Source: a virus
Lineage: Duplodnaviria; Caudoviricetes
Reading direction: 5' to 3' (one strand)
Virus record (IMG/VR): IMGVR_UViG_3300043427_003220
Span: 64,001-128,000 of that record
DNA: 64,000 bases
Positions 1,762-60,218 of this stretch are shown one piece after another. The number at the start of each line of letters is the position of its first letter. The first letter of the stretch is position 1. The translations under genes were made by a program, and so were the position numbers. The notes under the pieces are model-generated. The model ran no database searches. It saw only the letters and a program-made list of their open reading frames with translations, and was not told the origin of the DNA.

Positions 1762-1788
1762 TAAAGTTCTTGCAACAAAAGACGATAA
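1762..1788 (+). promoter_or_regulatory. sigma-28/FliA-type promoter
   Basis: TAAA-N15-GACGATAA (consensus TAAA-N15-GCCGATAA), followed by AGGAGG and ATG at 1816. Confidence 0.75.
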
Positions 1789-1815
1789 GATTTATGGTGA
1801 GTGTAGGAGGTACCT

Positions 1816-1884
1816 ATGCTCATCAGTCTTTTATTGGCTTTATTAATAGCCTATGTAGCGGCTAGATTAGGGAGTATTATATGA
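1816..1884 (+). CDS. 22-aa hydrophobic peptide (not in ORF track)
   Basis: MLISLLLALLIAYVAARLGSII; strong SD; ATGA overlap with next gene. Confidence 0.55.
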   Translation: MLISLLLALLIAYVAARLGSII

Positions 1885-2069
1885 AAATGCTTGATATGAT
1901 GATGGCTTATGAGAACGGTGACCTTGATATGGAACAAACCGTAGAATTGTTTCAAAAACTTATTGACAGCGGGCTTATTTTTAGCCTACAAGGTAATTAT
2001 ATGAGAGTGGCCAGAGATTTGGTTGACGCTGGTTTGATTGACTTGACTACTGCTGACATTGAGGAGTGA
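1881..2069 (+). CDS. Small phage hypothetical protein
   Basis: SD GGGAG; AYExGxL..ELFQxLIDSG..LQGxY pattern typical of small phage early proteins. Confidence 0.75.
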   Translation: MKMLDMMMAYENGDLDMEQTVELFQKLIDSGLIFSLQGNYMRVARDLVDAGLIDLTTADIEE

Positions 2070-2071
2070 TT

Positions 2072-2221
2072 ATGGCAATGGAAATGTTTGTTAATAGAAT
2101 CTTAATGTTGATGGCAGGAACACTAACGAGTCACGCTGTTTACGAAATGCTTGAAATTGAGCATAATTCAGTAGACGCCATTGCCACCTATGAAGCCGTA
2201 GTAAACGGAAACATCCTATGA
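2072..2221 (+). CDS. 49-aa hypothetical protein (not in ORF track)
   Basis: SD GAGGAG, MAMEMFVNRILM...; ATGA overlap with next ORF. Confidence 0.6.
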   Translation: MAMEMFVNRILMLMAGTLTSHAVYEMLEIEHNSVDAIATYEAVVNGNIL

Positions 2222-2385
2222 CAAACAAACATGATGACGAACAGGAGCCCAAAGACCCGGAAACTCTCGAAGAGGCTTTGTTTATTATTGCCTGCCATCT
2301 TATTATTTTTGTTTTAAAGGTCGGTTGCATTGTTGCAGGCTGGATGTTGATGGTTGAGTTGTTGAAAAAAATGTTAATGCAATAG
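2218..2385 (+). CDS. 55-aa membrane protein (not in ORF track)
   Basis: MTNKHDDEQ... then hydrophobic segment; translationally coupled to upstream ORF. Confidence 0.6.
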   Translation: MTNKHDDEQEPKDPETLEEALFIIACHLIIFVLKVGCIVAGWMLMVELLKKMLMQ

Positions 2386-2393
2386 GAGGGGTT

Positions 2394-2744
2394 ATGGCCC
2401 TAAATGCTTTGGTTATTGTCGGAAGTTTAATTCTTGGTGGTTTTGCCCTATCGGCAGCAAAACATAAACCGCTACCAGTTGGCTCGTGTATTGCAAACAG
2501 TTTGCTCTGTAATGCTAATGACCCTAACATTGACCCTTGGGAAGTGAAATGCTATACAAGCGCCGTTTTGAAGATTGAGCAAGTTGGCAAACGGTCTTAC
2601 AAAACAAGTTGTATTGATGAAACTGTTCAGTGTAAAGAGTTTGTTAGTTTTGAGGACGCTAAGTCTATTTATTATCCAATTGAGTGTCCAGTTATAAAGA
2701 AAGAGATGCGCCTTCACAACTCAATTCCGTTGCCGAAAGAATAA
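2394..2744 (+). CDS. Exported/membrane Cys-rich hypothetical protein
   Basis: SD AGGAGG, N-terminal hydrophobic segment, 6 Cys. Confidence 0.7.
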   Translation: MALNALVIVGSLILGGFALSAAKHKPLPVGSCIANSLLCNANDPNIDPWEVKCYTSAVLKIEQVGKRSYKTSCIDETVQCKEFVSFEDAKSIYYPIECPVIKKEMRLHNSIPLPKE

Positions 2745-2747
2745 TTT

Positions 2748-2942
2748 ATGAGAATTCTTATAGGAAACATTATTTTATTTATCTGCGTCAGCATTTTAAT
2801 TAGCTCTTTGTTGTATGTTACCAAGATTGCTGACAAATATATGAATGTAGCTACTCAAGTTTATTGCGAACAGCGCGCAGACTTTGATAAATGTTCTCAA
2901 GAATTTAAAGAAAAAACTTCTAAATTAATGAAGGAACGATGA
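2748..2942 (+). CDS. Small membrane protein
   Basis: N-terminal TM helix; overlaps next start. Confidence 0.65.
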   Translation: MRILIGNIILFICVSILISSLLYVTKIADKYMNVATQVYCEQRADFDKCSQEFKEKTSKLMKER

Positions 2943-3901
2943 TGCAGCTATCTGAATTTCTTGAAAAACATTTCAAGCATTTCAACGCAAGAGAAACGCT
3001 GGCTGCTGCTAAGGCTTATAAAGCGCATATTGAGTCTGGTAATCTAATGATGGTTACATTGGCAGGAGCTATGTCCACTGCCGAGCTTGGTATTATCTTG
3101 GCTGAGATGATTCGCCAAGACAAAGTACATGCTATTACCTGTACCGGAGCCAACCTTGAAGAAAGTCTCTATAACTTAGTTGCTTACAATCACTACAAAG
3201 TCATTCCTAATTATAGAGACTTGACTCCCCAAGAGGAGGAAGAGCTTCTCAGCCAACATCTCAATAGGGTCACAGATACTTGTATCCCAGAAGATGAAGC
3301 AATTAGGCTGATTGAAGGTCATTTGTTTGAAGAATGGAGAAAGCTTAATGATGCCGGCAGTTCAGCTTTTCCTCACCAAGTTACATACAATGTAATCCGT
3401 AGCGGTAAACTCAAACCACAGTCCGACCCTAAAGACTCGTGGCTTGTGGCTGCTTGTGAAAAGAATTTGCCCATTTATGTTCCGGGGTGGGAGGACTCAA
3501 CCTGCGGCAACATCTTTACCTCCTACTGCATGGCGGGTGATTTGTCACCTAAGTGTATTAAGGGCGGGATTGAAGCAATGATTGACTTGGCTGGATGGTA
3601 TCAGCGCGTAGCAAAAGACAAGACAGTTGGGTTCTTTCAAGTAGGCGGCGGTATTGCAGGTGACTTTCCCATCTGTGTAGTTCCTATGTTGCACCAAGAC
3701 ATGGGGCTTAGTAATGTTCCGTTGTGGGGATATTTTTGCCAGATAGGCGACTCTACGACTTCTTACGGAAGTTATTCAGGGGCAGTGCCCAACGAGAAGA
3801 TTACTTGGGGGAAACTCTCAAGAGAAACTCCTAAGTTTATGATTGAGTCAGACGCTACTATTGTTGCACCTTTGATTTGGGGGTATGTGCTTGAATATTA
3901 A
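2939..3901 (+). CDS. Deoxyhypusine synthase-like protein (bacterial SpeY/homospermidine synthase type)
   Basis: TGANLEE, NRVTDT, QVGGG and SYSGAVPNEKITWGK (catalytic Lys), ESDATIVAPL. Confidence 0.92.
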   Translation: MMQLSEFLEKHFKHFNARETLAAAKAYKAHIESGNLMMVTLAGAMSTAELGIILAEMIRQDKVHAITCTGANLEESLYNLVAYNHYKVIPNYRDLTPQEEEELLSQHLNRVTDTCIPEDEAIRLIEGHLFEEWRKLNDAGSSAFPHQVTYNVIRSGKLKPQSDPKDSWLVAACEKNLPIYVPGWEDSTCGNIFTSYCMAGDLSPKCIKGGIEAMIDLAGWYQRVAKDKTVGFFQVGGGIAGDFPICVVPMLHQDMGLSNVPLWGYFCQIGDSTTSYGSYSGAVPNEKITWGKLSRETPKFMIESDATIVAPLIWGYVLEY

Positions 3902-3925
3902 AACTCTGCGAGAACAGGTAGTTAT

Positions 3926-3953
3926 AAAAAAAGAAGGCGACGACTACGTCGCC
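3926..3953 (-). terminator. Intrinsic terminator for the leftward early operon
   Basis: GGCGACG-N4-CGTCGCC followed by TTCTTTTTTT on - strand. Confidence 0.6.
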
Positions 3954-4080
3954 ACCCATCCTTTACACCCTACACTTTCTGTATGTGCCCCTACAATTCT
4001 TGAAGCCGAAGAAGAAATTCTGCAATATGTTATGTATTTAGTTTTATTAAACAAAATAAAATAAAGCCATTTTACTGGCT

Positions 4081-4539
4081 TTAGATTGGGTTTGCAGACA
4101 TCTTTTGAATCAAGCTAAGCGTTGTTTTGGCCCTATAGATTTCAAACTTCTTGCCGCTCATAGAGCATCTCATACTATCTCTGTGCATTGATGTCTTAAT
4201 TTGCTTTACCTCTTCTTCAATTGCTGGAGAGTAGGTTTTGCCATTTTCCAACAAGACCTTTACGTAGACTGTAAAGCCGTCCGACCCTAAAGCTGCCACT
4301 GTCAAATAAGCCGCACCATTAGATACTGTAGTCTTTTCAGTGATGGCTGAACTCAACGCTCCAGCCGTCTCTTCGTTTGGAGCCAACAAAATAACACCCA
4401 AAACATCTGACGCCTTGGTCAATTCGGCCACTTCATCAACGCAATCCGTTGTCTTTTCTTCAAGAATCTTATTAATAGACAATCCACTCAATCCCACTAC
4501 TACCACTGCCGCTAAAGCAAACTTAAGAACTCGTTTCAT
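4081..4539 (-). CDS. Exported hypothetical protein
   Basis: SD GGAGGTGAG; signal-anchor MKRVLKFALAAVVVVG. Confidence 0.75.
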   Translation of the reverse strand: MKRVLKFALAAVVVVGLSGLSINKILEEKTTDCVDEVAELTKASDVLGVILLAPNEETAGALSSAITEKTTVSNGAAYLTVAALGSDGFTVYVKVLLENGKTYSPAIEEEVKQIKTSMHRDSMRCSMSGKKFEIYRAKTTLSLIQKMSANPI

Positions 4540-4829
4540 TGCTCACCTCCTACTTCATTATCGTCATCTTCGTCAGAATCTTTAATATTTTCTTTATCGT
4601 CTCTACTCCATTCTTTTTTTAAATGCTCGTCGAGTTTTGGTTTGTGTTTAAGAGGATGATAGTGATTTGTAATCGCATTTAAAACTAAGGCCACGTGTCC
4701 TGCCTTAAACCCTTCTGGTAAATGGCTAGCCAGCTCTTCCGTAAGGTGCTCAAAGCAGAGCTTCTTGGAAAACATAGGCGTTACCATTGCGTCGCATTTC
4801 TTGCATTTTCGCCACCGCTCACCTTCCAT
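4536..4829 (-). CDS. Hypothetical protein with N-terminal CxxC..CxxH Zn-finger-like motif
   Basis: CKKC...CFEH; SD GGGAG; overlap with neighbour. Confidence 0.7.
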   Translation of the reverse strand: MEGERWRKCKKCDAMVTPMFSKKLCFEHLTEELASHLPEGFKAGHVALVLNAITNHYHPLKHKPKLDEHLKKEWSRDDKENIKDSDEDDDNEVGGEQ

Positions 4830-4841
4830 AACACTCCCAAA

Positions 4842-5387
4842 TCAAAAGAAAATTTCTTCAAATTCTTCGTAATCTCTTTCAAAAATTTGCATAGCTTGAG
4901 ACTTGTCATAAAAAGAACGCAAAACGGGATGATGGGTCACATTATCTACTTCTGCAAATACCCACTTAGTTCTAGAAGACTTATGAAATAAAATAGAACC
5001 AACTGAAAATGGGAGCTTTTTGATTTCAGGCTTCTTGTTTTCTTCTTTGGCCGCCCAGCCATGATTTCTTAAAGATGGAGGTTGAGGCTGATATGCTGCT
5101 GGAGAAACTCCTGCCACACTGGACGACATCCCTGTACTCAAGTCAATCTTAACTGTCATGCACAAATTAGAGTCGTAATACTCAACTACGTTCGTCCAAT
5201 GATCGTAGGTTGCAGATGCAAGCCTCTTAATAACAGAGTCGTGCATGTCTAGTGCCGTGTAACTAGGCCACACCATAGTGAACTGATGGTTGTTATTGAC
5301 ATCCATTGTGCCATCAGCTTGCAAAACAGCATTTAATACCGAATCATAAAAAATATCATTTTTATTAAGTGGATACGCCATCGTCAA
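4842..5387 (-). CDS. Hypothetical protein
   Basis: SD AGGAG; operon context. Confidence 0.7.
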   Translation of the reverse strand: MTMAYPLNKNDIFYDSVLNAVLQADGTMDVNNNHQFTMVWPSYTALDMHDSVIKRLASATYDHWTNVVEYYDSNLCMTVKIDLSTGMSSSVAGVSPAAYQPQPPSLRNHGWAAKEENKKPEIKKLPFSVGSILFHKSSRTKWVFAEVDNVTHHPVLRSFYDKSQAMQIFERDYEEFEEIFF

Positions 5388-5613
5388 CTCCTAGGAAGCT
5401 GATTTCATTATTTTCTTTGTCAAAATCACACTCTACAAAATTATCATCAAGAAATTTATCAATAGCTTCAATAAGTTGCTTTGTATAAGCTTCGTTGCCG
5501 GAATAAATTACGCGCATAATGTGTCCAAGCTCACCTTTGGTTCCCAAAGATAGCAACAACACATCCAATGACTCAGAATAAAAATATTTACCTTCTTGAT
5601 CATATTTACTCAT
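5365..5613 (-). CDS. Hypothetical protein, first gene after sigma-28-type promoter
   Basis: SD AAGGAGG. Confidence 0.75.
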   Translation of the reverse strand: MSKYDQEGKYFYSESLDVLLLSLGTKGELGHIMRVIYSGNEAYTKQLIEAIDKFLDDNFVECDFDKENNEISFLGVDDGVST

Positions 5614-5634
5614 ATTGCCTCCTTTGTAATATTC

Positions 5635-5661
5635 TTATCGACGGCTTGACATTATTCTTTA
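5635..5661 (-). promoter_or_regulatory. sigma-28/FliA-type promoter
   Basis: - strand TAAA-GAATAATGTCAAGCC(15)-GTCGATAA. Confidence 0.75.
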
Positions 5662-17494: not shown

Positions 17495-18379
17495 ATGGCT
17501 GATAATGACGTTCTAACAGAAGAGTCTATACTTCAGTTAGTAAATCAACTAATAAGCATTGAGGCAGCGGCGCGTGAATCCGCAGACAGTCAAGAAATAA
17601 TTGACAGACAAATTGCCGACGAATCTTTGAGCCAACTGATTAGTCAGGAAATTGACAATAGGCAAAAAGCCATCAGTGCTTTGCAAACCGCTGCCAACCA
17701 GTCCATTACTCGTATTGATGGTAATGTAACTCAATTACAACAATTGTTTAATCAGCGTTATGATTCAATAACGACTCTTATATCCAACCTTAATGCGTCA
17801 TTCGATGAAAAAGTAGCGCTTTTTGATAGTTTGAGGCAAATTATTTTTGCCAATCAATCTAATATCGCTACTCTTCAAGGAGATGAGAATACAGTCGGCT
17901 CAGTAGCCAAAGCTCTTTTTGATGCCAAAGCGTACACAGACGCTAAGGTGTCTCAACTCCTAGATGGCGCTCCCGCTATCTTAGACACTCTTAAAGAGTT
18001 GGCTACTTCTATCGGCAATGACGGAAACTTTATTCAAACTATTAATGATTCTATTCAGGATGCAAAAAATACTGCTGCAGCCAATAAGCAAGAAATGCTG
18101 TCTCTTTTGTCTCATTCTCTTATTAAAAAACAGAGAATAATTCTTAACTCACAGCACATTGCCCAAGGATATGTCGAACTCCCTCATATTAACATCGTAC
18201 CCGACTCTCTAGATGGCCATATTGATAGACTTGGACTTTTTGAAGATGAAGATTTTGAGCTGTCTGAGGTTGACGGTAAGACTCGATTAATGTTCATAAA
18301 TAATTTTGCTATAGGAGGAGAAGAAGAAATCGAAGTTGGTGCCGAATTAAGGGTTAAATATTGGATTGTTCCTGAATGA
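17495..18379 (+). CDS. Coiled-coil fibre protein (short family member)
   Basis: GSVAKA..DAKAYTD, APAILDTLKELA fibre motif, shared C-terminal DRL..E.EDF domain. Confidence 0.75.
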   Translation: MADNDVLTEESILQLVNQLISIEAAARESADSQEIIDRQIADESLSQLISQEIDNRQKAISALQTAANQSITRIDGNVTQLQQLFNQRYDSITTLISNLNASFDEKVALFDSLRQIIFANQSNIATLQGDENTVGSVAKALFDAKAYTDAKVSQLLDGAPAILDTLKELATSIGNDGNFIQTINDSIQDAKNTAAANKQEMLSLLSHSLIKKQRIILNSQHIAQGYVELPHINIVPDSLDGHIDRLGLFEDEDFELSEVDGKTRLMFINNFAIGGEEEIEVGAELRVKYWIVPE

Positions 18380-18423
18380 TTTGATAGATAAGAAATAGGC
18401 TGTTTAAACATAGGAGAGATAAC

Positions 18424-19224
18424 ATGGCCAATTTGCGAGTTAAAAAGAAACACATAAACCCAGATGCGATTGATGGAACTAAGCTAAAGTTGCTGGCTGG
18501 CGAGGCAGTTAGGGTTGTAGACGCTGAGGGCGATACCGTTGAATTGGTTAAATTAGATGCCAGTGGAAATGTCTTGGGCAATGGTTTTGAATTGGCTAAG
18601 AAACAAGACCTAGACGCTGAAGTCACCTCACGTCAAGTTGCTCTATCTGCGGAAGAATCTGCTCGTATTGCCGGCGATGCTGCTGAGCAATCTCGCGCTC
18701 TTGCTGCAGAAGCCGCCCTTCAATCCGCTATTGATGCGGAAACAACATCCCGTCAAGCTGCAATTGCCGACCTTGTCAATAGCGCTCCAGCCGTCCTTGA
18801 TACTCTAAAAGAACTGGCCGACGCCCTTGGCGGTGATGAAGACTTTGCAACAACGATTGCAAACAGATTCTCTAGCATCGAATCCAGCCTTTCTGCTGCT
18901 ACTCAGGATGGCACCGAATATACGGACGAAAAACATCAAGAAATTCTAGATGTTATTTCTGAAACTCTTTTGAAAAAAGAAGAAGTTACTCTTTCTGCTC
19001 AAAATATTACCGATGGGTATGTTGAATTGGCAGGAACAGGGATTATTGCCGATTCTATGGTAGCTTCGATTGATCGTCTCAATGTTTTTGAAAATGAAGA
19101 TTTTAATTTGAGCGTTGTTGATGGGGTGACCCGCATGACATTCCTTAATAGCTTTGCTGCTGGCGGTGATGAAGCCGTCGAAGCAGGCGAAAAGCTTAGA
19201 CTTACGTATTGGAGTCTTGTCTAA
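18424..19224 (+). CDS. Coiled-coil fibre protein (short family member)
   Basis: N-terminal LRVKKK..PDAIDGTK, APAVLDTLKELADALG, shared C-terminal domain. Confidence 0.78.
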   Translation: MANLRVKKKHINPDAIDGTKLKLLAGEAVRVVDAEGDTVELVKLDASGNVLGNGFELAKKQDLDAEVTSRQVALSAEESARIAGDAAEQSRALAAEAALQSAIDAETTSRQAAIADLVNSAPAVLDTLKELADALGGDEDFATTIANRFSSIESSLSAATQDGTEYTDEKHQEILDVISETLLKKEEVTLSAQNITDGYVELAGTGIIADSMVASIDRLNVFENEDFNLSVVDGVTRMTFLNSFAAGGDEAVEAGEKLRLTYWSLV

Positions 19225-19242
19225 ACCTTCCGACCCCCCTTT

Positions 19243-19276
19243 GAGGCGACTCTATTATAGGGTCGCCTCTTTTTTT
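19243..19276 (+). terminator. Intrinsic terminator
   Basis: GAGGCGACTCTA/TAGGGTCGCCTC stem + T run. Confidence 0.85.
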
Positions 19277-19344
19277 ATTGTTTTAGTTAATTCCTGCTAA
19301 AATATTTGTGCATATCTTCCAACCTAAGCAGGAGACTAATAATC

Positions 19345-24750: not shown

Positions 24751-24786
24751 TTAGCTAAAGTAATATAAAAAGAAAGGCACAAACAA

Positions 24787-42090: not shown

Positions 42091-42494
42091 TTGTGAAGAG
42101 TTTTTTAAGATGTCTAACATATAAAAATGATTATAGTTTTTGTATAGAAGACGGCGTCTTAAAAGACTCTTTTCTTAATATTAAGATAAACCCCAATCCT
42201 TCTATGCTCTTTGCCGAGATGCTTACTGAGTGTTTGTGGAATGTCTGTAGGGTTGATTTTGACTTTATGATAACTTCTTTGACTCCTCCTACAAATGAAA
42301 ATATAGTTAATGATTTTAATAACATAACAAAAACTTGTTATTTAAGACACACAGTAGGCGACCAAGAAACCTACTATCACCTTAAAGACAACTCTCTCTA
42401 TTTGTTTGATAAGCCAAACGAGCCAGTTAAAATAACAGAGCTATTACTGATTGACGGCGATTGGACGATTGTTAAAGAGCAGGACTGCAGATGA
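42087..42494 (+). CDS. Hypothetical protein
   Basis: Overlaps both neighbours. Confidence 0.6.
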   Translation: MIVKSFLRCLTYKNDYSFCIEDGVLKDSFLNIKINPNPSMLFAEMLTECLWNVCRVDFDFMITSLTPPTNENIVNDFNNITKTCYLRHTVGDQETYYHLKDNSLYLFDKPNEPVKITELLLIDGDWTIVKEQDCR

Positions 42495-44104
42495 AAAAAC
42501 TTCTTGAAATTATTGACGAAGTTGCAAAAGAGCATGGGCTTGAATGGTACAAGCCACATAGCGCCGAACCTATCAAAAAATCCTCCGACCCTCTTGCCCC
42601 TCTTATTCAGCAAGCCAAAGCAAATCTTGCTGCAGTTCATAAAGTCGCTTCTCAAGAGCCACGCCCAATGTTGTTTGGCGGTAAGAACGGCTCTGGCCGT
42701 CATGGTTTTGTGTCTTTAGACCCATCCAAACCCAACCAATGGCGTGTCACTCACTTTGTTAAGGGCAAGCCTTCAGGGCACACAGAGGCAGATAGCTTTA
42801 GCGATGCAATTGAAAAGGCTCACAGCTATGGCTACAATGTATCCAAAGAATTATCTGAAGAAGATATGAGTAAGACTGAAGACTTAGAAAAAAACACAAA
42901 TAAAATATCGCCAAGCTTTGCACACATTAAAAATATTGATAATTTTGATGACTTTACTCAATCCGTAAAAAAATTGCCAGAAACAACCAAAAAAGAAATA
43001 ATAAATTATCAAGAAGAGTATAATAAAAATCCCCCACTTTCTTCAAATGAAGAACTTTACTATCACGGAACTCCTTTTTTTAATGAAATTAAAGAAGGTG
43101 GATTTAAGAATACAGAAGGAGGTAGGGCCGGATTCTTAGGTTTTGTGCATAAGGTGCAAAATTTAGGAAACTATTTCAGCAATGACAAAAGATTAGCGCA
43201 CTATTATGGCTCTGACCGAGCGTCTCATCATACTAACAATTCTAATAATTATGAAGTATTATCGGTCAAAGTAAATAAAGGAAACTGCTTAGACCTGACA
43301 GAACCAAAAGTTAAGATACCAACAGCGATAAAAAAATTAGGTCTTAAAAAACTACAGCAATATGATGGGCTGTTACGCTCTCATTTTATTAGAGGTAAAG
43401 ACATGGTTGTTTTACTAGATGACCCTGATTTTGTTAAAAGTTTAACCAATCATGGATACGATAGCGTCAAATTTAAAGAAGACAAAGGTATTTTAAAAAA
43501 TGCTAATAGTTCTGGACATACTTTATTCGTAATGAACCCTAATAAATTGAAAGTTCATAAACCTATCCGTACCTTAAGAGACATGTTTAATCATTTTAAA
43601 GAGTTGTTTGAAGAAGATATGGAACAGGACAAAATGAAAAAATCCGAAGACTTCTCTCGTGTATCTTCTGTTGTTGTTGCTACCGACGACAAGATGTTGA
43701 TGCTCCAGCGCCGCGACAATAACAAGTGGACATTCCCCGGTGGTCATTTAAATGACACAGAAACTCACCTTGAGGGAGCTGTTAGAGAGCTATGGGAAGA
43801 GGCTGGCATCAGAGCTAACCCAGATGAAATGATTCTTCTTGGAAACAAGAAGACTTTTCAAAATAAAGACATTCACGTTTATCTTTATAAAGTAAACTCA
43901 GAAGTCAAACCATCAGCCGCCAATGACCCAGACAAAGAAGCCCAGAAGTTTGCATGGTTGCCGCATGTACTGCCAGAAGATATTAAAGAAAACCTCTATA
44001 TCCCCGTTGGAGACAACTCTTCATTGTCGTTGTTTTCGGTATGGTTGTTGAGACAAAAGACGAATAAACTCAAAAAGTTGGTTGAGGCTAAGAAATCAGT
44101 TTAA
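42491..44104 (+). CDS. Polyvalent multidomain protein 3 (ART-like + Nudix hydrolase)
   Basis: YYHGT..F..GNYFS..A.YY..GYDSV ART-like; complete Nudix box GHLNDTETHLEGAVRELWEEAGI. Confidence 0.8.
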   Translation: MKKLLEIIDEVAKEHGLEWYKPHSAEPIKKSSDPLAPLIQQAKANLAAVHKVASQEPRPMLFGGKNGSGRHGFVSLDPSKPNQWRVTHFVKGKPSGHTEADSFSDAIEKAHSYGYNVSKELSEEDMSKTEDLEKNTNKISPSFAHIKNIDNFDDFTQSVKKLPETTKKEIINYQEEYNKNPPLSSNEELYYHGTPFFNEIKEGGFKNTEGGRAGFLGFVHKVQNLGNYFSNDKRLAHYYGSDRASHHTNNSNNYEVLSVKVNKGNCLDLTEPKVKIPTAIKKLGLKKLQQYDGLLRSHFIRGKDMVVLLDDPDFVKSLTNHGYDSVKFKEDKGILKNANSSGHTLFVMNPNKLKVHKPIRTLRDMFNHFKELFEEDMEQDKMKKSEDFSRVSSVVVATDDKMLMLQRRDNNKWTFPGGHLNDTETHLEGAVRELWEEAGIRANPDEMILLGNKKTFQNKDIHVYLYKVNSEVKPSAANDPDKEAQKFAWLPHVLPEDIKENLYIPVGDNSSLSLFSVWLLRQKTNKLKKLVEAKKSV

Positions 44105-44305
44105 GTCGTCTTTATCGTTTGGCCTATTTTCAATCGCTCTAATAAGCCTAACAGCAAAATGCTTATGAAAATCGTGGTTTGTTTGATTGGCGGGATTTTT
44201 AGCTAACGCATCTAGATAGGCAGTCAAAATATCCTTAGCGACTTTGTTGTCATCTTGGATTCTTTTGATAAGAGACTCGTCAATTTTATAAGTTGTTTGA
44301 TTCAT
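44096..44305 (-). CDS. Hypothetical protein
   Basis: ATGA-coupled to upstream gene. Confidence 0.65.
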   Translation of the reverse strand: MNQTTYKIDESLIKRIQDDNKVAKDILTAYLDALAKNPANQTNHDFHKHFAVRLIRAIENRPNDKDDLN

Positions 44306-44925
44306 TTATTTTTCTTTAGTTGATTGTCTTGAATATGATAATCGGCTGCGCGATATTTAACAATATCCTTTCCGTAGATATACCACTCTCCATTATTTTT
44401 TTGAATATTTTCAAGCAACTCTGCGTGAGTCATCCCCATTCTGTTTGCCGCTCGCTTTAGCAAATAAGTCTCTTGAACAAACCCTTCTAGGCCAGCCAAA
44501 AATGCCTCGGTGACTGGAATGGTTCCGTTTCCAAAAGAAATAGAATGGTGGTGAGTCATAAGCAATGTTCTGTCTAGATATACTCTTACAGTGCAGGCTT
44601 CGTAAATTTCAAACGCTGCGCTCATTGCTGTATCAGCAACGCAAATGGTTTTAAACCCACTCATAGTATTCATAATACTTTCGGCAGCATCAACCATTCC
44701 ACCGTTGCTGTTGATATAGATAAGCAAGGTGTCTCCGGCTTTCATTTTTTCTGTGCGGCCCTTAAGGTTGTCGTCTACATACCAGTTAATTTCGCCGCTC
44801 ATATTAAACATGGCTTGTTTATTGGTTTGCAACTCAGCCAAGACTTCTTGAGGTATCTCTGGATTGGGTTTAGATTTTCCACAAGCGGCTAAAATCATTA
44901 AAAATATCAAAAAAAGTTTTTTCAT
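44302..44925 (-). CDS. Lipoprotein with ClpP-like (S14) protease domain
   Basis: MKKLFLIFLMILAAC lipobox; INSNGGMV, AMSAA (Ser), LMTHH (His). Confidence 0.78.
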   Translation of the reverse strand: MKKLFLIFLMILAACGKSKPNPEIPQEVLAELQTNKQAMFNMSGEINWYVDDNLKGRTEKMKAGDTLLIYINSNGGMVDAAESIMNTMSGFKTICVADTAMSAAFEIYEACTVRVYLDRTLLMTHHHSISFGNGTIPVTEAFLAGLEGFVQETYLLKRAANRMGMTHAELLENIQKNNGEWYIYGKDIVKYRAADYHIQDNQLKKNK

Positions 44926-45482
44926 TTTTTGTATCTCAATGGGTAGAAGACAGAGTGAACTATTTGAATACACTGCTCTTTTGTTAGTATTTTATTATCC
45001 ATCAAAGTAAATACGGCATTTCTTGCTGCAATTGATGGGGTCCATGATAAACACATATGAACAACATTCAGCAGCGACTTTTCTTCGTCTGAAAGTAGTT
45101 CTCTATACAATTCCATGCTCTTTTCTAACTGTTCTCTTATAGACGCAATTTGACCGTCGAGTTCACGGCGTTCTTTGATATTTTGCTTTAAGACTCTTTC
45201 TATTCTTTTTGCAACCAACAAATCAACACTGAGTCTTTTTTCTACTTTTTTCAAACAAATCAACAATATACGTCTAGCTGCGTAATTGTCTAAAAAATTA
45301 CCTGACAATACAATGTCTATTTTGTCTAAAGAATCGACATTTGGCAACTTAAGAAAATCAACTATTGTGCCGCTCCATGTTGAGTCCAGTTGTTTCCAGA
45401 TTCGAGGGCCTGATTCAGAAATATAATACACATCGTATCTATTAATTTTTCTAGATGTGTCTAGTAGTTGACTCTCTTTCAT
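44922..45482 (-). CDS. Hypothetical protein
   Basis: Operon context; start uncertain (45482 or 45521). Confidence 0.65.
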   Translation of the reverse strand: MKESQLLDTSRKINRYDVYYISESGPRIWKQLDSTWSGTIVDFLKLPNVDSLDKIDIVLSGNFLDNYAARRILLICLKKVEKRLSVDLLVAKRIERVLKQNIKERRELDGQIASIREQLEKSMELYRELLSDEEKSLLNVVHMCLSWTPSIAARNAVFTLMDNKILTKEQCIQIVHSVFYPLRYKK

Positions 45483-46403: not shown

Positions 46404-46432
46404 TTGACATTTAGCCAAGTTATGGCCATAAT
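46404..46432 (+). promoter_or_regulatory. sigma-70-type promoter for the lysis genes
   Basis: TTGACA-N17-CATAAT about 40 bp before the lysozyme start. Confidence 0.65.
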
Positions 46433-47061: not shown

Positions 47062-47670
47062 ATGTTGAAAGAACTTTATGAAAAAATCCCTGTATGGGGC
47101 AAAGTTGGAGCCGTAGCGTTGGTTGCTGGATACTTTATCGGAAGAAGTGCCGTACCTGTTCATACCGAAACGACTTCAGAAACTAAAAAAGAAACAAGTG
47201 AGTCTGAAAACAATAAAAAATCTGAAACTCATACAGAAGACAAAACAAAGACATCTGAAGAATCGTCTAAAAAGACTCAAGGGCCGATTAAGATTATTAC
47301 AAGAGAGACTAAACCAGACGGTACAAAAGTAGATAAGATTATTGTTATTGGACCTAAGACAGAAGAGAAGAACAAAAAAGAGACGGATAGTACAAAGAAA
47401 GAAGATAAAAAAGACGAATCTAGCAACAAAGACAAAAAATCTTCTGAAACAACCAAGCAGACAACAGTGACGCAGCCGCTTCCTTCGTATTCAGTCGGTG
47501 CTCACATCAAAGCACCTGTAGACGAAATTACATCCAACCACTTAAAGAAAGAGTTGGACGTAACCGCTGGATATAGGGTCTATAAGGGATTGTGGATTGA
47601 GGGAGTGGTATCTACCCCAATGGACTTTAAGAAGCCAGCAGTTGGAGTGGGCTTTAGGGTTGAGTTTTAA
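47062..47670 (+). CDS. Spanin-like envelope protein
   Basis: Follows endolysin; N-terminal TM, charged linker, C-terminal amphipathic beta strands ending in Phe. Confidence 0.55.
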   Translation: MLKELYEKIPVWGKVGAVALVAGYFIGRSAVPVHTETTSETKKETSESENNKKSETHTEDKTKTSEESSKKTQGPIKIITRETKPDGTKVDKIIVIGPKTEEKNKKETDSTKKEDKKDESSNKDKKSSETTKQTTVTQPLPSYSVGAHIKAPVDEITSNHLKKELDVTAGYRVYKGLWIEGVVSTPMDFKKPAVGVGFRVEF

Positions 47671-47888
47671 CGCCTACGGCCCGGCCCACAGTCGATTTCT
47701 AGATGAGCGTCTTCAACGCCCAAATTTTGAAAAGTCATTGCAATCTGCATGGGGGTATAAAAATCCCCTGCATTCACTTTGACCTTAACTCTTTCCCCAT
47801 TGATGCGAAGAATGAGCCATGCTGAGCCGTTCTCACGGCCCATCCTTGCGTTGACTGCTTTTTGAATTTGATTAATAAGAACTTTCAT
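47667..47888 (-). CDS. Hypothetical early protein
   Basis: SD GGAGGTG; own sigma-28-type promoter. Confidence 0.75.
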   Translation of the reverse strand: MKVLINQIQKAVNARMGRENGSAWLILRINGERVKVKVNAGDFYTPMQIAMTFQNLGVEDAHLEIDCGPGRRR

Positions 47889-53161: not shown

Positions 53162-54094
53162 TTATTCTGAGACTTTGAATCCCATTGCCTCGTCAATCAT
53201 CTTACGAGCTTCTGCTTTATAATCAAGAATTTTTGTAAGTTGTTTTTGCAAACTTAGTTCTTGCGCAGGAGTTAGTGTGCCATTACGTGCAATTTCAACC
53301 GATTTTGGCTCAGTTATCAGCGGACACTTTGACCAAGTTATATTAAGGCGAACATAACCGCCGAATAGAGAAAGAGTTTGTTTTTCTTCTTTGTTTACCA
53401 AATCCGGTGTACAAACGGCTTGAGCAACGCGGTCGGCGGCCTTTGCCTTGACAGCATCGCGGCCAAATAGCCAATAATCATCTCTTACAAGTTGTTTAAA
53501 TCTTTCTACTGGCAATTCCATGCGTTTTGCTTGTGCAGCATCAATTGCATTGGTCATTTGCTTCAAAAATTCAACAAACGCAATTGCATTTGGCTGAGGT
53601 TGGAACCTTAGTCCAAAAGAGGGAACATGTTGCATCAAAATAGATGATTCGAGAACCACGCGCTCATCGCAAGCTTGAAGGATAACAAATGACATCGAAG
53701 CAGAAAAGTCTGTTACACAAACTACTTTTTTATTAACAGAACGAATTGCCTGTACAAGCTGTACGCCATCCATTACTGAACCACCGGGGGAGCTAAGAAA
53801 CAAATTAACCGTATCCCCTTGAGCGGTCATCAAAGCAGAGATAGCTTTTGACACGCTGGTTCCGTCAACCTCGCCACGTAGTACGATTGTATTATCAGAA
53901 AGCACAATAGAATTTTTACTAGAAGTAAGCTTTTGTTGGCATTCAAGGCTTTGGCAAGTAACATCGCTGCTATTATTTTTTTGCGACAAAATTGGCTTAG
54001 AACTATTGTTTGAAAACTCAGAAGCTGAGGCTGACCCAACTGTTGTCAAAGCTAGAATAGACAATGGAATAGAAAGAAAAGACTTAAAAAACAC
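53162..54094 (-). CDS. ClpP-like (S14) protease with N-terminal signal peptide
   Basis: GGAGG + GTG start; ..LSILALTTVGSASA signal; LSSPGGSV, SASMS, LMQH, DYWL..AV..AD. Confidence 0.82.
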   Translation of the reverse strand: MFFKSFLSIPLSILALTTVGSASASEFSNNSSKPILSQKNNSSDVTCQSLECQQKLTSSKNSIVLSDNTIVLRGEVDGTSVSKAISALMTAQGDTVNLFLSSPGGSVMDGVQLVQAIRSVNKKVVCVTDFSASMSFVILQACDERVVLESSILMQHVPSFGLRFQPQPNAIAFVEFLKQMTNAIDAAQAKRMELPVERFKQLVRDDYWLFGRDAVKAKAADRVAQAVCTPDLVNKEEKQTLSLFGGYVRLNITWSKCPLITEPKSVEIARNGTLTPAQELSLQKQLTKILDYKAEARKMIDEAMGFKVSE

Positions 54095-54150
54095 AAAACC
54101 TCCAATCGTATTAACAGCATAAGACAACACCATTGTTTCTTATGAAATTA

Positions 54151-54671: not shown

Positions 54672-55634
54672 TTACCGGAACACTGCATCAAGAGCGTCGT
54701 CAATTGACGATGGGGCTGCTGCTTTTGGCGCAGTTGGCTTAGGCTGCGGAGCGGGAGTAGGAGTAGACATCATAGCGGGGACATCAACTTCTTCATTGGT
54801 TGGTGTTGAAGCTGCATTGCTACGACGCTCTGGAGTTTTGCCAGCAGAAAGATACTCTTGTACCTCTCCTACAGTCCACATATAGTTGGAAGCAATCTCA
54901 ATAACGTCTGGCAAGTCAGACTCTTTAAGGCTCTTAAGAGCTTGCGATGGCTCTGCCTTAAAGACAGCCAAAACAGGGTCGTCAAGGCCCTCGACTTTCT
55001 GCTCTGTTCTGTAAAGGTCTACAGAATATTCTGTGTTCAATCCTGAACCAGTACGGGAAATGCGCAGCCAACCCGTAGGAGCCATGGTATTAAACAAGTT
55101 GGTGCCTTTACGGCGCAGGGTCTGATACAAGCCTTCTTGAGCTGGCTTGTCACCGTAAGCTTCTGTGCCAAACAAAATCTTAATGACAGTCTCTGGAACT
55201 TCGAGCGCTTCGACCTTGTCTGAGCCCAAGACGTTTACAAGAAGAACGCCCCTGCGTGTTGGTCTGTGAATTCTTGCCTGCGCGTCAAGCTCTTTGTATT
55301 CGGCGCTTTCTTTGTTTTTAATTTCTTTTTGTTTCTTCTTCAGCTCCATAAACAGCTCAAACTGTGGGTCTTTTTGACCTTGAACTTGGAGTGATGGGCG
55401 TGTCCAGTTAGCCATGGTGCCGTCTGGCATCTTTCTCTTATAGGTGAACTTATTGAATCCATAATAAAAGGCGGGATTTCCTCCTCCATCCTTCATATAG
55501 ACAATAGGAATGATTTTGCAGATAAGTGGCTTGCCTTCTGGTACAGTGAGCGCCTTGGGGCGGCCACCAGCAGCAGAGCCAGATTTTGCAGTTTCAGGAA
55601 GAGCATCAGGATTAAAGTTATCAAGAAATGACAT
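54672..55634 (-). CDS. gp32-like single-stranded DNA-binding protein
   Basis: GWLRISRTGSGLNTEYSV, Pro/Ala linker, acidic tail IDDALDAVFR. Confidence 0.72.
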   Translation of the reverse strand: MSFLDNFNPDALPETAKSGSAAGGRPKALTVPEGKPLICKIIPIVYMKDGGGNPAFYYGFNKFTYKRKMPDGTMANWTRPSLQVQGQKDPQFELFMELKKKQKEIKNKESAEYKELDAQARIHRPTRRGVLLVNVLGSDKVEALEVPETVIKILFGTEAYGDKPAQEGLYQTLRRKGTNLFNTMAPTGWLRISRTGSGLNTEYSVDLYRTEQKVEGLDDPVLAVFKAEPSQALKSLKESDLPDVIEIASNYMWTVGEVQEYLSAGKTPERRSNAASTPTNEEVDVPAMMSTPTPAPQPKPTAPKAAAPSSIDDALDAVFR

Positions 55635-55649
55635 AGTAGGTACCTCCAA

Positions 55650-56300
55650 TTAAACATGCTTAGCAATAAATTCAAAAGAAGTGTCAGCGTTCTCCGCTGT
55701 CACAATAAAAGTATCGTCAAAAGTGAGATTATCTTTAGGTGAATCAGAAATAAGTAGTAATTTTGAAGACATATTTTTTAGTGTAGAATAATATTCTTCA
55801 GAAATGTCGTGAACTACCGTGAAGTACACCTTTGTGTCTGTACGCTGAGTATCAAACATACAGCTCAGGGTTGTTCCGTCTTGGCAGCTAACCAAATAAT
55901 CTAAAATGCGTGCATAGTCATAAGGCTCCTTTACTACTAAATCAGTTCCATTGTAAGATTTAACAGGGTCATCCGATACCCTGCAGACCTCGTTAAAGTG
56001 AATCATAATTTCTTGCAGCAAAAGAAGAGATACAGACTCAGACAACTCCATGATGTCGCCTACAGCTGGCAATCTGTGAGAATAGCCCTCTTCTCTTAAA
56101 TAATTAACAGCGTCCATAACAAACAAACCATGCCACGGCATATACTTAGCCTGAGCCTCTAACAATGCGTGGACTGTATCTACAAATATGCTGTTGTCTT
56201 TGGACATCAACACAACCCACACTGGCACTGGAGTGTGTTTACTGTAGATAGTTGACTGTTTGTCTTTAAACGCCCAACGGCTTTTTTCTAGTCTTTTCAT
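55650..56300 (-). CDS. Hypothetical protein in replication block
   Basis: ORF length and context only. Confidence 0.65.
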   Translation of the reverse strand: MKRLEKSRWAFKDKQSTIYSKHTPVPVWVVLMSKDNSIFVDTVHALLEAQAKYMPWHGLFVMDAVNYLREEGYSHRLPAVGDIMELSESVSLLLLQEIMIHFNEVCRVSDDPVKSYNGTDLVVKEPYDYARILDYLVSCQDGTTLSCMFDTQRTDTKVYFTVVHDISEEYYSTLKNMSSKLLLISDSPKDNLTFDDTFIVTAENADTSFEFIAKHV

Positions 56301-56853
56301 CTTTTTTGCCTTTCTTTTTTGGAGTCTGTTTCTTGTTTTTAGGTTTTGGCTCTTTCTCTACAATGAATTGTCCGTACTGGTTATACCAATAGCCAATCAA
56401 TAGGGCATCAATGATGCCTTCATGCGGCTTGCTGCTTCTTTCTGTAGCAAGAAAATCCTCTAAAGGGAAGAGTTTTTTTGCAACCTCTAAACTTCTTGCC
56501 TTGGGGTCTTCAAAAGGTGACTCTGAGTCATGTAGTTTTGTTGCCCAAGTCCGAGGAGCGACTAGTGCAATATTATTTACAATTGCAGAGGCTGTGGCAA
56601 ACAACAGTCCAAAGTTATAGCCAGAAGTCCAAGCTGAGCTGACTCCCTCTCCCGGTCTTGGTGCTTGTCTCTCTAAAACAACAACATCTGGCCGATGATT
56701 GACCATAAGCTGGCCAACTTCAACCAGATTGATTGTTGACTTTTTGTTCTTAAGGTTTTTGTCAATTGGCATCCTGCCGCGAGCAACGACTATGAAGCCG
56801 TCTAAAATTGCATAACCACCCGAAATACCGGGGTCAAAAGCCAAAATTCTCAT
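56266..56853 (-). CDS. ruvC: RuvC-like Holliday junction resolvase
   Basis: ILAFDPGISG, VVLE, G.NFG, PRTW, DALLI. Confidence 0.85.
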   Translation of the reverse strand: MRILAFDPGISGGYAILDGFIVVARGRMPIDKNLKNKKSTINLVEVGQLMVNHRPDVVVLERQAPRPGEGVSSAWTSGYNFGLLFATASAIVNNIALVAPRTWATKLHDSESPFEDPKARSLEVAKKLFPLEDFLATERSSKPHEGIIDALLIGYWYNQYGQFIVEKEPKPKNKKQTPKKKGKKDEKTRKKPLGV

Positions 56854-57851
56854 AAGTTATTCCAGTCAATTAAATTATCCGTCTTATTTATAGTAAATTC
56901 TGGCTTCTTTGTCAATGTTCCCGCCTCTTGCATCAACTTATCTATAGCTACGAGTATCTTATCGTTGTGTATTTCGGGGTCTTTAAAGCAATGAAACAGG
57001 GCGTCTGGCCCAGTAATGTGCAGGTTGTCTCCATGGTTGTCGCCGCCCTCTTCTCGACAGCACGGGCAGGCTATTTGTAACTTGCCGCCAATCTCTGTTG
57101 ATAGTCCCAAGTAAGTATTTACATACCAATCTAGCTTTTTGACAATGTCGGCTCTGTTTACTGCTTGCGGCGAAGCTTGAGCATCCTTTTGAAAGATTTG
57201 GTGCCACTTTGTTTGTTTGTATTTTTCCTCGAACGCAGGAGAATATATAAGGTCAAACAATTCTGAATTGTCAATTCTGTCAGATATTTCGACAATTTGC
57301 TGTACTGTGTTAGACCTGATAGAATTCGGAAACCGAGTGAAACGAGCGGGGTCACTACATGCGCGGTCATTTTTCTCTTCGCATAAAAAATGAATCCTAT
57401 AAAAGATGTCTTTGTATTGTAATAAGCCATTGCTTTTAAGCTCTCCTGTATGATGGTATAGAGGTTCTTTTAAAGAAATAATAAAATGATATGATTTGCC
57501 ACCTGAATAAATGCAAGCCGAGTACGGTAAACCAATCTTTTTCATAAATGGAATTTGTTCTTCGAGTGGCAGTTGGTCAAATTCTATAAGAAAATTTCTA
57601 AGAACAAATACGTTTTCAGATGTTTTATTGATATTAAGTTGTTTTGCGGCATTTACGGCAATGTAAGCGCCCCTTTCAAAGCTTCTGTCAATATACTGAA
57701 GGATAGCTTGCTCTTTTGTCATGGAGAAATGTTTTTGGAGCAGATAGTCTGCCGCCCAGACGTACTGCTCGTCTCCGTATAAAAGAGTCATATACTTAAC
57801 GACGGGCATCAATATATCTCTTTTGATGCCGTCTCGTGGGGAATGGCGCAC
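56850..57851 (-). CDS. AEP/RepB-type primase with C-terminal Zn finger
   Basis: LIEFD, SGGKSYH, D..CSDPARFTRFP; CPCC..HC..H. Confidence 0.72.
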   Translation of the reverse strand: MRHSPRDGIKRDILMPVVKYMTLLYGDEQYVWAADYLLQKHFSMTKEQAILQYIDRSFERGAYIAVNAAKQLNINKTSENVFVLRNFLIEFDQLPLEEQIPFMKKIGLPYSACIYSGGKSYHFIISLKEPLYHHTGELKSNGLLQYKDIFYRIHFLCEEKNDRACSDPARFTRFPNSIRSNTVQQIVEISDRIDNSELFDLIYSPAFEEKYKQTKWHQIFQKDAQASPQAVNRADIVKKLDWYVNTYLGLSTEIGGKLQIACPCCREEGGDNHGDNLHITGPDALFHCFKDPEIHNDKILVAIDKLMQEAGTLTKKPEFTINKTDNLIDWNNL

Positions 57852-57864
57852 AAAGCCCCCTTAA

Positions 57865-58866
57865 TCAAAAATTATCGTAATCGTCATTAAAACCCATCGA
57901 ACGCTGTTCTTTCTTTAGTCCACCCGATTCAGCCTTCTTACGTTGTAGTAGCACTTCAACCACCGCATCCGCAAGAGGAATATCATATAACTCATGCCGT
58001 AACACTGCTTCTTTGCTGTAAGCAGGAGTTAGCTTAGTTCCCACAAACAACTGCTTCTCATCGGCAGTTAGTTCTCTATCCATAAACTTTTCTACAAGAA
58101 AAATAATTTCTTCGTCTTTTGGCGGCTCTACTTCACGGACGATGTCAAACCGTCCCGGTCTACTGGTCAAAGTTTTGTTCAATACATCTAGGTAGTTGGT
58201 TGTGGCTACAATCAAAGTAGGGATTTTGAATACATCTGCGTTGCCGTCCAAGAAGTTAAGCATCTCAGAATCAACACGGCCTGCTCTTTCTTCAAGGCCA
58301 GACCCGCCAATATCCTCTATAACCAAAAGAATCAAGCTGGCAGCCGACTCTTGAGCATTTGAGAACATATCAATCAAAGTCTCAAAGCTGACTTGCTGAG
58401 AGTCTACTCTGAGAATGCAAGCCTTGGGCATCTTGATAATTTGGCGGCAAAAGTAGTTGATGAGGCTAGATTTACCAATCCCCGGTTCACTGCCGAACAA
58501 AAACCCTCTTTTGGGGGCAATCTTTCTTTTCTTGTAGATGTCCAGCTTAGACATAAAGACACTGAAGTGCTTCATGAGTTCTCTGGAGGTGTCTGTCTCG
58601 TAATACTGAATCTCTGTCAGTTCCATGGGCTGAAGACCCTCTTCAGGGGTAATACGCCATGCTCCTTCGGTAATCTTATAGGATTCTTTGGTCTTTGGTG
58701 TCTGAATGTCCATATCTAGCAGGTGAGGTTCTGATACCTTAACGACGTTTCCTAACTCATCTACAGACTCAATAGTCCTATTGACAACAAGCTGATAGTT
58801 GCCTAGCTCAACCTGTAAACCTGCCTGTAACTTAGTAATGCTCCGTACTTTGGCTACTTTAGACAT
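57865..58866 (-). CDS. AAA+ ATPase, paralog of 9151..10134
   Basis: KRGFLFGSEPGIGKS, LVIEDI, LNFLDG, TTN, RPGRFD. Confidence 0.88.
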   Translation of the reverse strand: MSKVAKVRSITKLQAGLQVELGNYQLVVNRTIESVDELGNVVKVSEPHLLDMDIQTPKTKESYKITEGAWRITPEEGLQPMELTEIQYYETDTSRELMKHFSVFMSKLDIYKKRKIAPKRGFLFGSEPGIGKSSLINYFCRQIIKMPKACILRVDSQQVSFETLIDMFSNAQESAASLILLVIEDIGGSGLEERAGRVDSEMLNFLDGNADVFKIPTLIVATTNYLDVLNKTLTSRPGRFDIVREVEPPKDEEIIFLVEKFMDRELTADEKQLFVGTKLTPAYSKEAVLRHELYDIPLADAVVEVLLQRKKAESGGLKKEQRSMGFNDDYDNF

Positions 58867-58876
58867 AACGACTCCA

Positions 58877-59149
58877 TTAATAACTAAAAATCAAATCATC
58901 TGCTGTTACATAAGTGTCATTAAAAAATCTGGGTGTTTCTTGGCGCAATCTGGGGTCCAAAACATCGCTGTGCCACACTGCATTATCAGAAGACCTAGTG
59001 ATGGCCGCTACTGCGACAAACGACTTATCGTCATCAATCCAAAAATTAGAAATAGTTAGAATTAGTCTTGGAGCGTCGTCATCGACATAATAGGCATTTT
59101 GCGATGTTTGGTCGAGTCCACCGTTCATATATCTATTTGGACGCATCAT
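58877..59149 (-). CDS. Hypothetical protein
   Basis: SD GGAGGAGG, overlap with helicase stop. Confidence 0.65.
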   Translation of the reverse strand: MMRPNRYMNGGLDQTSQNAYYVDDDAPRLILTISNFWIDDDKSFVAVAAITRSSDNAVWHSDVLDPRLRQETPRFFNDTYVTADDLIFSY

Positions 59150-60165
59150 TCCTCCTCCACGTCTTCTGCCGGAATCAAGACAAAGTTATCATTCATCTGC
59201 CAAGTCGTAATATCTTTGCCGTACTTGTAAGGATAACGAACTTTTTGAATCTTTAGCCAAGTGCGAACTTCATTGTTGGCATTGACCTTCTTAACAAGCA
59301 TAAGACCATGGGTCGCGTGGGTCAACGACTCTTTTGACTTTCTTAGGCAGCTAAACATATCCCACTGAAAGGCCGACCGCCCTGCTGGCGGATACATTTG
59401 CTGAAAGCAGATAACAGGGGCATACTTAGGAGACTTACGGCTGTTGATTCTGAGGCCAAACTGCTGACTCATAGTTTCAATCTTTTTAAAATCTTCAACC
59501 TTGCCCTTGCCTGTATAACCAATATCAGCCATGGCGTTTGACAACTGGTCAACAAAAATTAAGTCTGGATTAAACTCCTGAGCACACCTAAACGTATAGG
59601 TACATAGGGTCAGCCACCCTAATGACAACCCTTGAGAAGACTCGGCATCTTCAATACGAGAATACTGATAGACTCTCTTAAAAGCTTTTTCATAGGACAG
59701 GCCCAACATTGCGGCCAGCTTACGGCTAATTTCATTCCTATAGGCTTCAATAGGCAACTCGTTGGAAATAATCAAGATTCTTCGTCTGTTAGCAATAGCA
59801 TGGGCAGCGGACTGCATACAAAAAGTTGACTTGCCGTTACCTGTAGGAGCACCCACAACGACAAAAGACTTTTTATGCAAAGTAAGTTGAAACTCATCTG
59901 AAAAGAAGGGAATGCGGTCTTCGACCATGTCTTGAAAATCTTTTGCTTCTGACAACGCTTGTTCAACGAGGCGCTCTTTAAAATCCTCTTCCGCTTCTTT
60001 TTGCTGACGTTCAGATTCTGCCAAAATTTCTTTAAGCTGATTTGGATTAACAAGAATATCTTTTTGGGTGTCTCCGGTTTTAATAGAGACACTCCATGGA
60101 GTATCGGCTCCGACATCTCCAAACTGTGGGCTAGACCAATTTTCGTCTTCGTCGTGAGTAACCAC
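59146..60165 (-). CDS. DnaB/SF4-like helicase (RecA-fold domain)
   Basis: GAPTGNGKST, ISNE, IFVDQL, KVR. Confidence 0.72.
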   Translation of the reverse strand: MVTHDEDENWSSPQFGDVGADTPWSVSIKTGDTQKDILVNPNQLKEILAESERQQKEAEEDFKERLVEQALSEAKDFQDMVEDRIPFFSDEFQLTLHKKSFVVVGAPTGNGKSTFCMQSAAHAIANRRRILIISNELPIEAYRNEISRKLAAMLGLSYEKAFKRVYQYSRIEDAESSQGLSLGWLTLCTYTFRCAQEFNPDLIFVDQLSNAMADIGYTGKGKVEDFKKIETMSQQFGLRINSRKSPKYAPVICFQQMYPPAGRSAFQWDMFSCLRKSKESLTHATHGLMLVKKVNANNEVRTWLKIQKVRYPYKYGKDITTWQMNDNFVLIPAEDVEEE

Positions 60166-60191
60166 AAAAACCTCAACTTAAAGTTGCCATC

Positions 60192-60218
60192 CTATCGGCA
60201 TCACAAATCATAACTTTA
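60192..60218 (-). promoter_or_regulatory. sigma-28/FliA-type promoter overlapping the dnaE 3' end
   Basis: - strand TAAA-GTTATGATTTGTGAT(15)-GCCGATAG. Confidence 0.7.

Follow-up and report, generated by a model that had tools for sequence, protein, structure and literature searches.

Putative sigma-28 (FliA)-type promoters ahead of accessory and replication genes in the genome of a contractile-tailed phage

Sigma-28-type sites in the phage genome

The window analysed here is a stretch of 64,000 nucleotides (nt) corresponding to bases 64001-128000 of IMG/VR record IMGVR_UViG_3300043427_003220, a single viral record of 162,747 bp (42% G+C) in which we describe two-box elements resembling the promoters of sigma-28 (FliA), the sigma factor of flagellar genes. 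The record is classed by its source as 100% complete with terminal repeats, its ends overlap exactly over 127 bp, and metagenome runs of 12 studies, from freshwater, aquaculture and other settings, contain DNA of this phage, some of them being its possible source. Family scans describe a contractile-tailed phage, with baseplate, tube, sheath-initiator, portal, major head and many fibre genes, together with replication and nucleotide genes (DnaE-type polymerase, helicase, primase, recombinase, SSB and ribonucleotide reductase); about half of its open reading frames (ORFs) gave no family match in Pfam and PHROGs scans, and no tRNA genes were found. A megablast search with a 20-kb query detected no near-identical phage among GenBank phages, and the closest named phage is Myxococcus phage Mx1, whose polymerase shares 31% identity and whose record names a Myxococcus host. 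The alignment of DnaE sequences retrieved 78 viral loci with only two close relatives, the IMG/VR records G001 (122 kb) and G002 (110 kb), which carry polymerases 89-90% identical to that of the phage and share DNA of about 78% identity with it.

The original prediction had reported four FliA-type promoters in the window, each correctly oriented ahead of a start codon (P1, P2, P4 and P5 in Table 1). Their coordinates and strands proved exact and all four sites are real: they match the Escherichia coli consensus at 13-14 of 16 positions and are followed by a start codon 22-28 nt after the CGATA end (28 nt for P1, 22 for P2, 22 for P4 and 25 for P5). Four was nevertheless an undercount, as the window holds nine exact copies of TAAAG-N16-CGATA. 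Dinucleotide shuffling predicts 0.09 copies, and none of 100 shuffles reached nine, so that comparison with shuffled sequence came out in favour of the original prediction. In the whole genome TAAAG-Nx-CGATA occurs 18 times at N16, equivalent to the 11-bp spacer of the consensus, and 5 times at N17, one base pair longer, while each of the spacings N12-15 and N18-20 yields 0-1 copies.

The consensus published for sigma-28 of E. coli, TAAAGTTT-n11-GCCGATAA (PMC2859248), was used untuned for scoring. At the 11-bp spacer, 14 sites of the genome reach 14/16 or better, among them one full match of 16/16, while spacers of 8-10 and 12-14 bp give 0-3 such sites and 30 dinucleotide shuffles of the genome average 0.17 and never exceed 2. 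The window alone contains 6 sites at this threshold against 0-1 at other spacings. Both relatives repeat the preference for 11 bp (6 sites in G001 and 5 in G002, against 0-3 at other spacings); each also carries 8 exact core matches, with none for a reversed control pattern. Furthermore, the same element emerged from an unbiased scan for spaced pairs of 4-mers in 86 gene-oriented upstream regions, where the top 18 pairs were all pieces of CTAAAGTT...CGATAAG and the best pair occurred 12 times where 0.3 were expected.

A consensus drawn from 15 sites reads cTAAAGTTt for the -35 element and (G/T)nCGATAAG for the -10 element, and the window sites agree with TAAAGTTT at 6-7 of 8 positions and with GCCGATAA at 7 of 8. 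Positions that had not been selected for are conserved as well, namely the C before TAAAG and the TT after it, the G two bases before CGATA and the AG after it. On their boxes, spacing and match to the consensus, the sites qualify at the level of sequence as putative promoters of the sigma-28 (FliA/SigD/WhiG) class.

Their placement is equally regular. All 17 sites that are intergenic, or lie in the last bases of the preceding gene, are co-oriented with the next gene, and in 16 of these 17 a Shine-Dalgarno sequence and start codon follow 19-41 nt after CGATA (19-22 nt in 10 of them), which would give a short leader of about 12-35 nt. For 11 sites the surrounding region aligns with a relative (about 78% identical); both boxes persist in 10 of these, with at most one mismatch, amid changed spacers and flanks. 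P1 has an identical counterpart in G002, P3 keeps both boxes there with an altered spacer, and both relatives keep the boxes of P5, at the polymerase-helicase junction of all three genomes, with changes in the spacer. The only aligned site that is not kept, at 56960, was treated as a chance match on that account. The site at 55712 is conserved in both relatives, but this is ambiguous because the coding sequence around it is itself 86-90% identical, and we list it as a possible promoter. Altogether the window is predicted to contain five or six genuine promoters and the complete genome at least 17.

Table 1. Features of the phage genome. Positions refer to the window unless another region is named; fractions given for sigma-28-type sites are matches to the E. 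coli consensus.
Feature	Position	Strand	Description
P1	1762-1788	+	TAAAGTTC-n11-GACGATAA, 14/16; intergenic, co-oriented
P2	5635-5661	-	TAAAGAAT-n11-GTCGATAA, 13/16; 22 nt before ATG of gene 5365-5613
P3	4558-4584	-	TAAAGATT-n11-GACGATAA, 14/16; within 3' end of ORF 4536-4829; 19 nt before ATG of ORF 4081-4539; accepted as additional site
P4	47910-47936	-	TAAAGTTA-n11-GACGATAA, 14/16; heads a single 73-aa ORF (47667-47888, -)
P5	60192-60218	-	TAAAGTTA-n11-GCCGATAG, 14/16; -35 box overlaps last codons of DnaE-type polymerase gene
Possible internal promoter	55712-55737	-	TAAAGATA-n11-GACGATAC, 12/16; inside gene, 77 nt before gene 54672-55649
Doubtful match	32230-32255	+	TAAAGTTT-n11-TCCGATAC, 14/16; within 3' end of cadherin-domain fibre gene; neither ribosome-binding site nor start codon within 90 nt; region unalignable with relatives
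Doubtful match	31411	-	Antisense in fibre gene; no start codon nearby; region unalignable with relatives
Match treated as chance	56960	-	In gene; not conserved in relatives
TGnTAAAAT boxes	11510, 16383, 19295-19303, 32364	+	Before structural operons
TGnTAAAAT boxes outside window	genome 6646, 55391, 161046		
Lysozyme sigma-70-type promoter	46404-46432	+	TTGACA-17-CATAAT, 11/12
P1 operon	1817-4064	+	22-aa hydrophobic mini-ORF and seven further ORFs
Mini-ORF	1817-1885	+	22 aa, strongly hydrophobic; first frame behind P1
DUF7417 gene	1881-2069	+	In P1 operon
Deoxyhypusine-synthase-like gene	2939-3901	+	In P1 operon; Pfam DS, E 2.8e-40
Terminator-like hairpin	4062-4083	both	Same stem, T-rich tail on minus strand; P1 and P2 operons converge
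P2/P3 operon	4081-5613	-	Four ORFs (82, 181, 97 and 152 aa); no family match
P5 replication operon	54672-60165	-	DnaB-like helicase, 90-aa ORF, AAA ATPase, primase-like, RuvC-like resolvase, two unknown ORFs
Small-gene islands headed by the motif	outside window, ~2.7-3.1, 34.5-36.5, 41.8, 45.3, 49.1-49.3 and 154.8-158.2 kb		
Auxiliary metabolic genes	L003:2299-3201	+	
Auxiliary metabolic genes	L003:16958-17881	-	
Auxiliary metabolic genes	L006:11590-13543	+	Operon outside window behind a sigma-28-type site: aminotransferase-like, deaminase-like and SIS-domain genes
Inverted repeats after -10 box	L001:2736-2760, L002:16581-16605 (genome 2736-2760, 34581-34605); G001 near 93288; G002 near 23779		
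Fibre-like gene sets	L004:3604-9892; 17495-29655	+	
Cadherin-domain protein gene	30074-32302	+	742 aa, among fibre genes; three cadherin domains and a Big_9 domain
NUDIX-domain protein gene	42491-44104	+	537 aa; C-terminal NUDIX domain
ClpP-like protease genes (two) and Clp-type AAA ATPase gene	44302-44973, 53162-54133; L001:930-1844	-	

Directly after the -10 box some of the promoters have a short inverted repeat, ATAAGnCTTAT followed by CTTA-TG-TAAG, which could form a stem-loop at the 5' end of the transcript or serve as an operator. A TTGAC-like word is present in some of the spacers.

These repeats and the TTGAC-like word would also suit a different reading of the motif, as the binding site of a phage regulator or as a recombination cassette that spreads with accessory genes and is not a promoter: they fit copied cassettes or an operator, and many sites head regions that cannot be aligned between relatives. 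What speaks for a promoter is the combination of two conserved boxes at a fixed distance, co-orientation with the next gene, a fixed distance to the ribosome-binding site and an exact match to a known sigma consensus, none of which would be expected of an operator or recombination site by itself, and a mobile cassette may still be a promoter. We consider the motif very improbable as anything other than a promoter.

Genes behind the sites and other promoter types

The original prediction had seen no such site before structural genes, and this holds genome-wide on our own ORF map, where no recognised virion gene lies behind the motif. In the window the sites precede accessory operons, a single small ORF and a replication operon, and elsewhere in the genome they head small-gene islands, one of which has an operon of auxiliary genes (Table 1). 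Many of the promoter-headed islands cannot be aligned among the phage, G001 and G002, so that the promoters are markers of the genome's variable part.

The mini-ORF of the P1 operon overlaps the start of the next gene, and a similar frame stands behind the same promoter in G002. The deoxyhypusine-synthase-like enzyme encoded in this operon belongs to a family that is unusual for a phage. The auxiliary metabolic genes of the phage include a full-length GlpX-type fructose-1,6-bisphosphatase and a family-9 (heptosyl)transferase.

Other promoter types were found elsewhere. The lysozyme gene has the sigma-70-type promoter that had been ascribed to it. Boxes of the form TGnTAAAAT, resembling an extended -10 element without a -35 partner, lie 28-57 nt before structural operons; they are not enriched (5 against 6.2 by chance), four of the five standing 30-57 nt before a co-oriented structural gene, and we regard TGnTAAAAT, on its placement alone, as a candidate late promoter type. 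The sigma-28-type sites are themselves distinct from sigma-70 promoters, in that their CGATAA -10 box does not have the sigma-70 TAnnnT pattern and that a consensus scan for TTGACA-17-TATAAT listed none of the five promoters P1 to P5. Reading TAAAGT as a sigma-70 -10 box, or the TTGAC of the spacer as a -35 box, was tried and rejected, no consistent partner box being present at 16-18 bp.

Several further genes of the phage were recorded. The fibre-like gene set is unusually large; among its products are three C1q-domain proteins as well as two giants, 1,814 and 1,622 aa long. Within the cadherin-domain protein a short stretch matches the HigB toxin profile (E 1e-8), with no separate stretch passing, and this match is probably spurious. 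The NUDIX-domain gene comes after two very large virion-type genes and its product also has a weak match to an ADP-ribosyltransferase (polyvalent protein). One of the two ClpP-like proteins may be the head maturation protease.

Candidate readers of the sites

The original prediction had left room for a sigma-28-like factor encoded elsewhere by the phage itself. Since the genome is complete, this alternative could be tested, and it found no support: as far as sequence methods reach, the complete genome contains no sigma-70-family gene. Six-frame searches with Pfam Sigma70_r2, r4 and r4_2 and NCBIfam sigma70-ECF gave no match at E values up to 1-10, with bacterial controls positive, and Pfam and PHROGs scans of the called ORFs returned no sigma, RNA polymerase or transcription-factor family. 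Custom hidden Markov models were additionally built from sigma genes, FliA among them, taken from five bacterial genomes; run unfiltered against all 2,408 six-frame ORFs (50 aa or longer) of the three phage genomes, they gave a best E value of 0.66 (6.7 bits), and a comparison of the sigma alignment with 134 phage proteins by hhalign reached a best probability of 1.9%.

As no phage sigma or RNA polymerase gene was detected, the host core RNA polymerase with a host factor of the sigma-28 family is the likeliest reader of the sites. Moreover, both FliA boxes at FliA spacing would most simply need a relative of FliA and none was found in the phage, which makes a host factor the most economical solution. 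We give a probability of roughly 0.6 to the reading that accessory and replication genes form a phage regulon read by a host sigma-28-family factor. In this mechanism, host core RNA polymerase and the host factor would recognise the sigma-28-type sites, and through them transcribe the helicase-primase operon, several auxiliary operons and the small accessory genes of the variable islands. Sigma-70-type promoters would serve the lysozyme gene and stand where the replication and nucleotide modules begin, and TGnTAAAAT would serve the virion genes. A large share of the non-structural programme would then be expressed only where sigma-28 is free and active, in flagellated, motile cells.

Many phages run their programme through cascades of sigma factors of their own making, such as gp28 and gp33-34 of Bacillus subtilis phage SPO1 and gp55 of T4. 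By analogy, the sites might be read by a phage-encoded factor that escapes profile searches, either a very diverged sigma or a protein outside the sigma-70 family, made early from a few sigma-70-type promoters, the sigma-28-like sites then forming a middle class. The ORFs without family match leave room for such a protein, and near 34.5 kb of the genome a sigma-70-like promoter lies just upstream of a sigma-28-type site, a tandem typical of early-plus-middle control. Against this, FliA-like regions 2 and 4 are not detectable in the genome or its two relatives at the scores given above, nor was any RNA polymerase subunit found, and we regard a phage-encoded reader as unlikely.

Several points weigh against reading by a host sigma-28 factor. 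Sigma-70-like promoters are present in the divergent region where the replication and nucleotide modules begin, as well as before the lysozyme gene, so that sigma-28 would not be the sole route of expression and may not be the first to act, as the original prediction had supposed; it is to be noted that sigma-70-like matches overall are at chance level (21 against 16.8, and 44 against 36.2, in the regions of the sigma-28-type sites). Four exact matches to the pattern lie inside genes, one or more of them (56960) lacking conservation, which means that the pattern alone does not prove function. The genes were called with a simple ORF picker of our own (188 genes, 94% of the genome covered), and a phage sigma may have diverged beyond profile detection. 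Finally, sigma-28 is usually scarce and held by its anti-sigma factor FlgM, an odd choice for a lytic programme.

A bolder reading is that the sigma-28-type promoters form the immediate-early class and that only motile cells are infected, for instance via the flagellum. In such cells FlgM would have been exported and sigma-28 would be free, and the phage could shut down sigma-70 transcription with no harm to its own genes. We put this forward tentatively, as a proposal that is more doubtful than the host-factor reading to which it could be added.

The motif appears restricted in its distribution. Mx1 contains no match, and the 32 other DnaE-bearing viral records scanned, all on larger contigs, have 0-4 matches each, close to the control, so that none of them shares it. 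The motif is thus not a general trait of such phages, and its absence from Mx1 and the other records fits tuning to a particular host.

As to the identity of that host, the original prediction had pointed to a Bdellovibrionota-like bacterium. In such a host, a Bdellovibrio-like predator whose free-swimming attack phase is run for the most part by FliA, the FliA-type promoters of the phage would be its immediate-early class. FliA-type boxes were indeed found in 92 of 140 mapped attack-phase promoters of Bdellovibrio bacteriovorus, with the consensus TTAAG-N16-CCGATA (PMC3627812). Additionally, the closest named phage infects a Myxococcus, and Oligoflexia and Bdellovibrio occur among the mixed top matches of GlpX at 48-53% identity. 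The phage pattern differs from this published consensus, its mode being TAAAG-N15-CCGATA, which has the spacing of E. coli, with TAAAG in place of TTAAG and a spacer 1 bp shorter in 18 of 23 sites, the longer spacing occurring in the other 5 only. Furthermore, a 20-kb query against 401 genomes of the phylum of a Bdellovibrio metagenome-assembled genome gave no spacer-like or prophage-like match, only short matches to conserved genes, and GlpX, compared with one genome per species, reaches at most 56% identity, with equally good matches spread over Alphaproteobacteria, Oligoflexia, Myxococcota, Acidobacteriota and other groups. A Bdellovibrionota-like host is accordingly unsupported, and we consider it quite unlikely.

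Two further approaches to the host were followed. Counts of TWAAG-N15/N16-CCGATA in five metagenome-assembled genomes gave no clear regulon, and an Atlas look-up of the heptosyltransferase returned viral clusters together with mixed bacterial ones. The phage does carry heptose-pathway genes, the family-9 glycosyltransferase and a SIS-domain protein, which are weakly suggestive of a Gram-negative host.

Relation to known promoter systems

The phage sites are closest in form to the class 3 promoters of flagellar and chemotaxis genes in E. coli and Salmonella, which are served by sigma-28/FliA: both octamers and the 11-bp spacer (PMC2859248) are matched, and in both systems each site stands upstream of a gene in the same orientation. 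Unlike class 3 promoters, those of the phage are found in a virus and precede accessory, auxiliary and replication genes instead of motility genes, and beyond the E. coli consensus they have a conserved G after the -10 box (CGATAAG) and a C before the -35 box. Like the phage, B. bacteriovorus carries the sigma-28-type signal far beyond flagellar genes, as a broad programme switch.

The comparison extends to phage systems. As in the SPO1 and T4 cascades, one set of non-virion genes has a uniform, dedicated promoter class; unlike in those cascades, no sigma gene is detectable here, and the promoter copies a host consensus and not a phage-specific one. In T4-type phages, 'promoter early stem-loop' cassettes flank variable accessory genes and carry sigma-70 early promoters. 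The promoter units described here likewise head small, fast-changing accessory genes, some with an inverted repeat after the promoter, but they carry the sigma-28 consensus.

Textbook phages use the housekeeping sigma factor of the host, or a sigma factor or polymerase of their own. A full-text literature search, judged from its result lists, returned no report of phage promoters read by sigma-28. What differs from known sigma-28 promoters is their setting, namely a virus with accessory and replication genes behind them. If the host-factor reading is true, the success of infection would be tied to the state of the host, swimming or sessile, which would bring a new logic to host take-over and to phage-host ecology in water. 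The immediate-early reading, if true, would amount to a take-over strategy built on an alternative sigma factor of the host.

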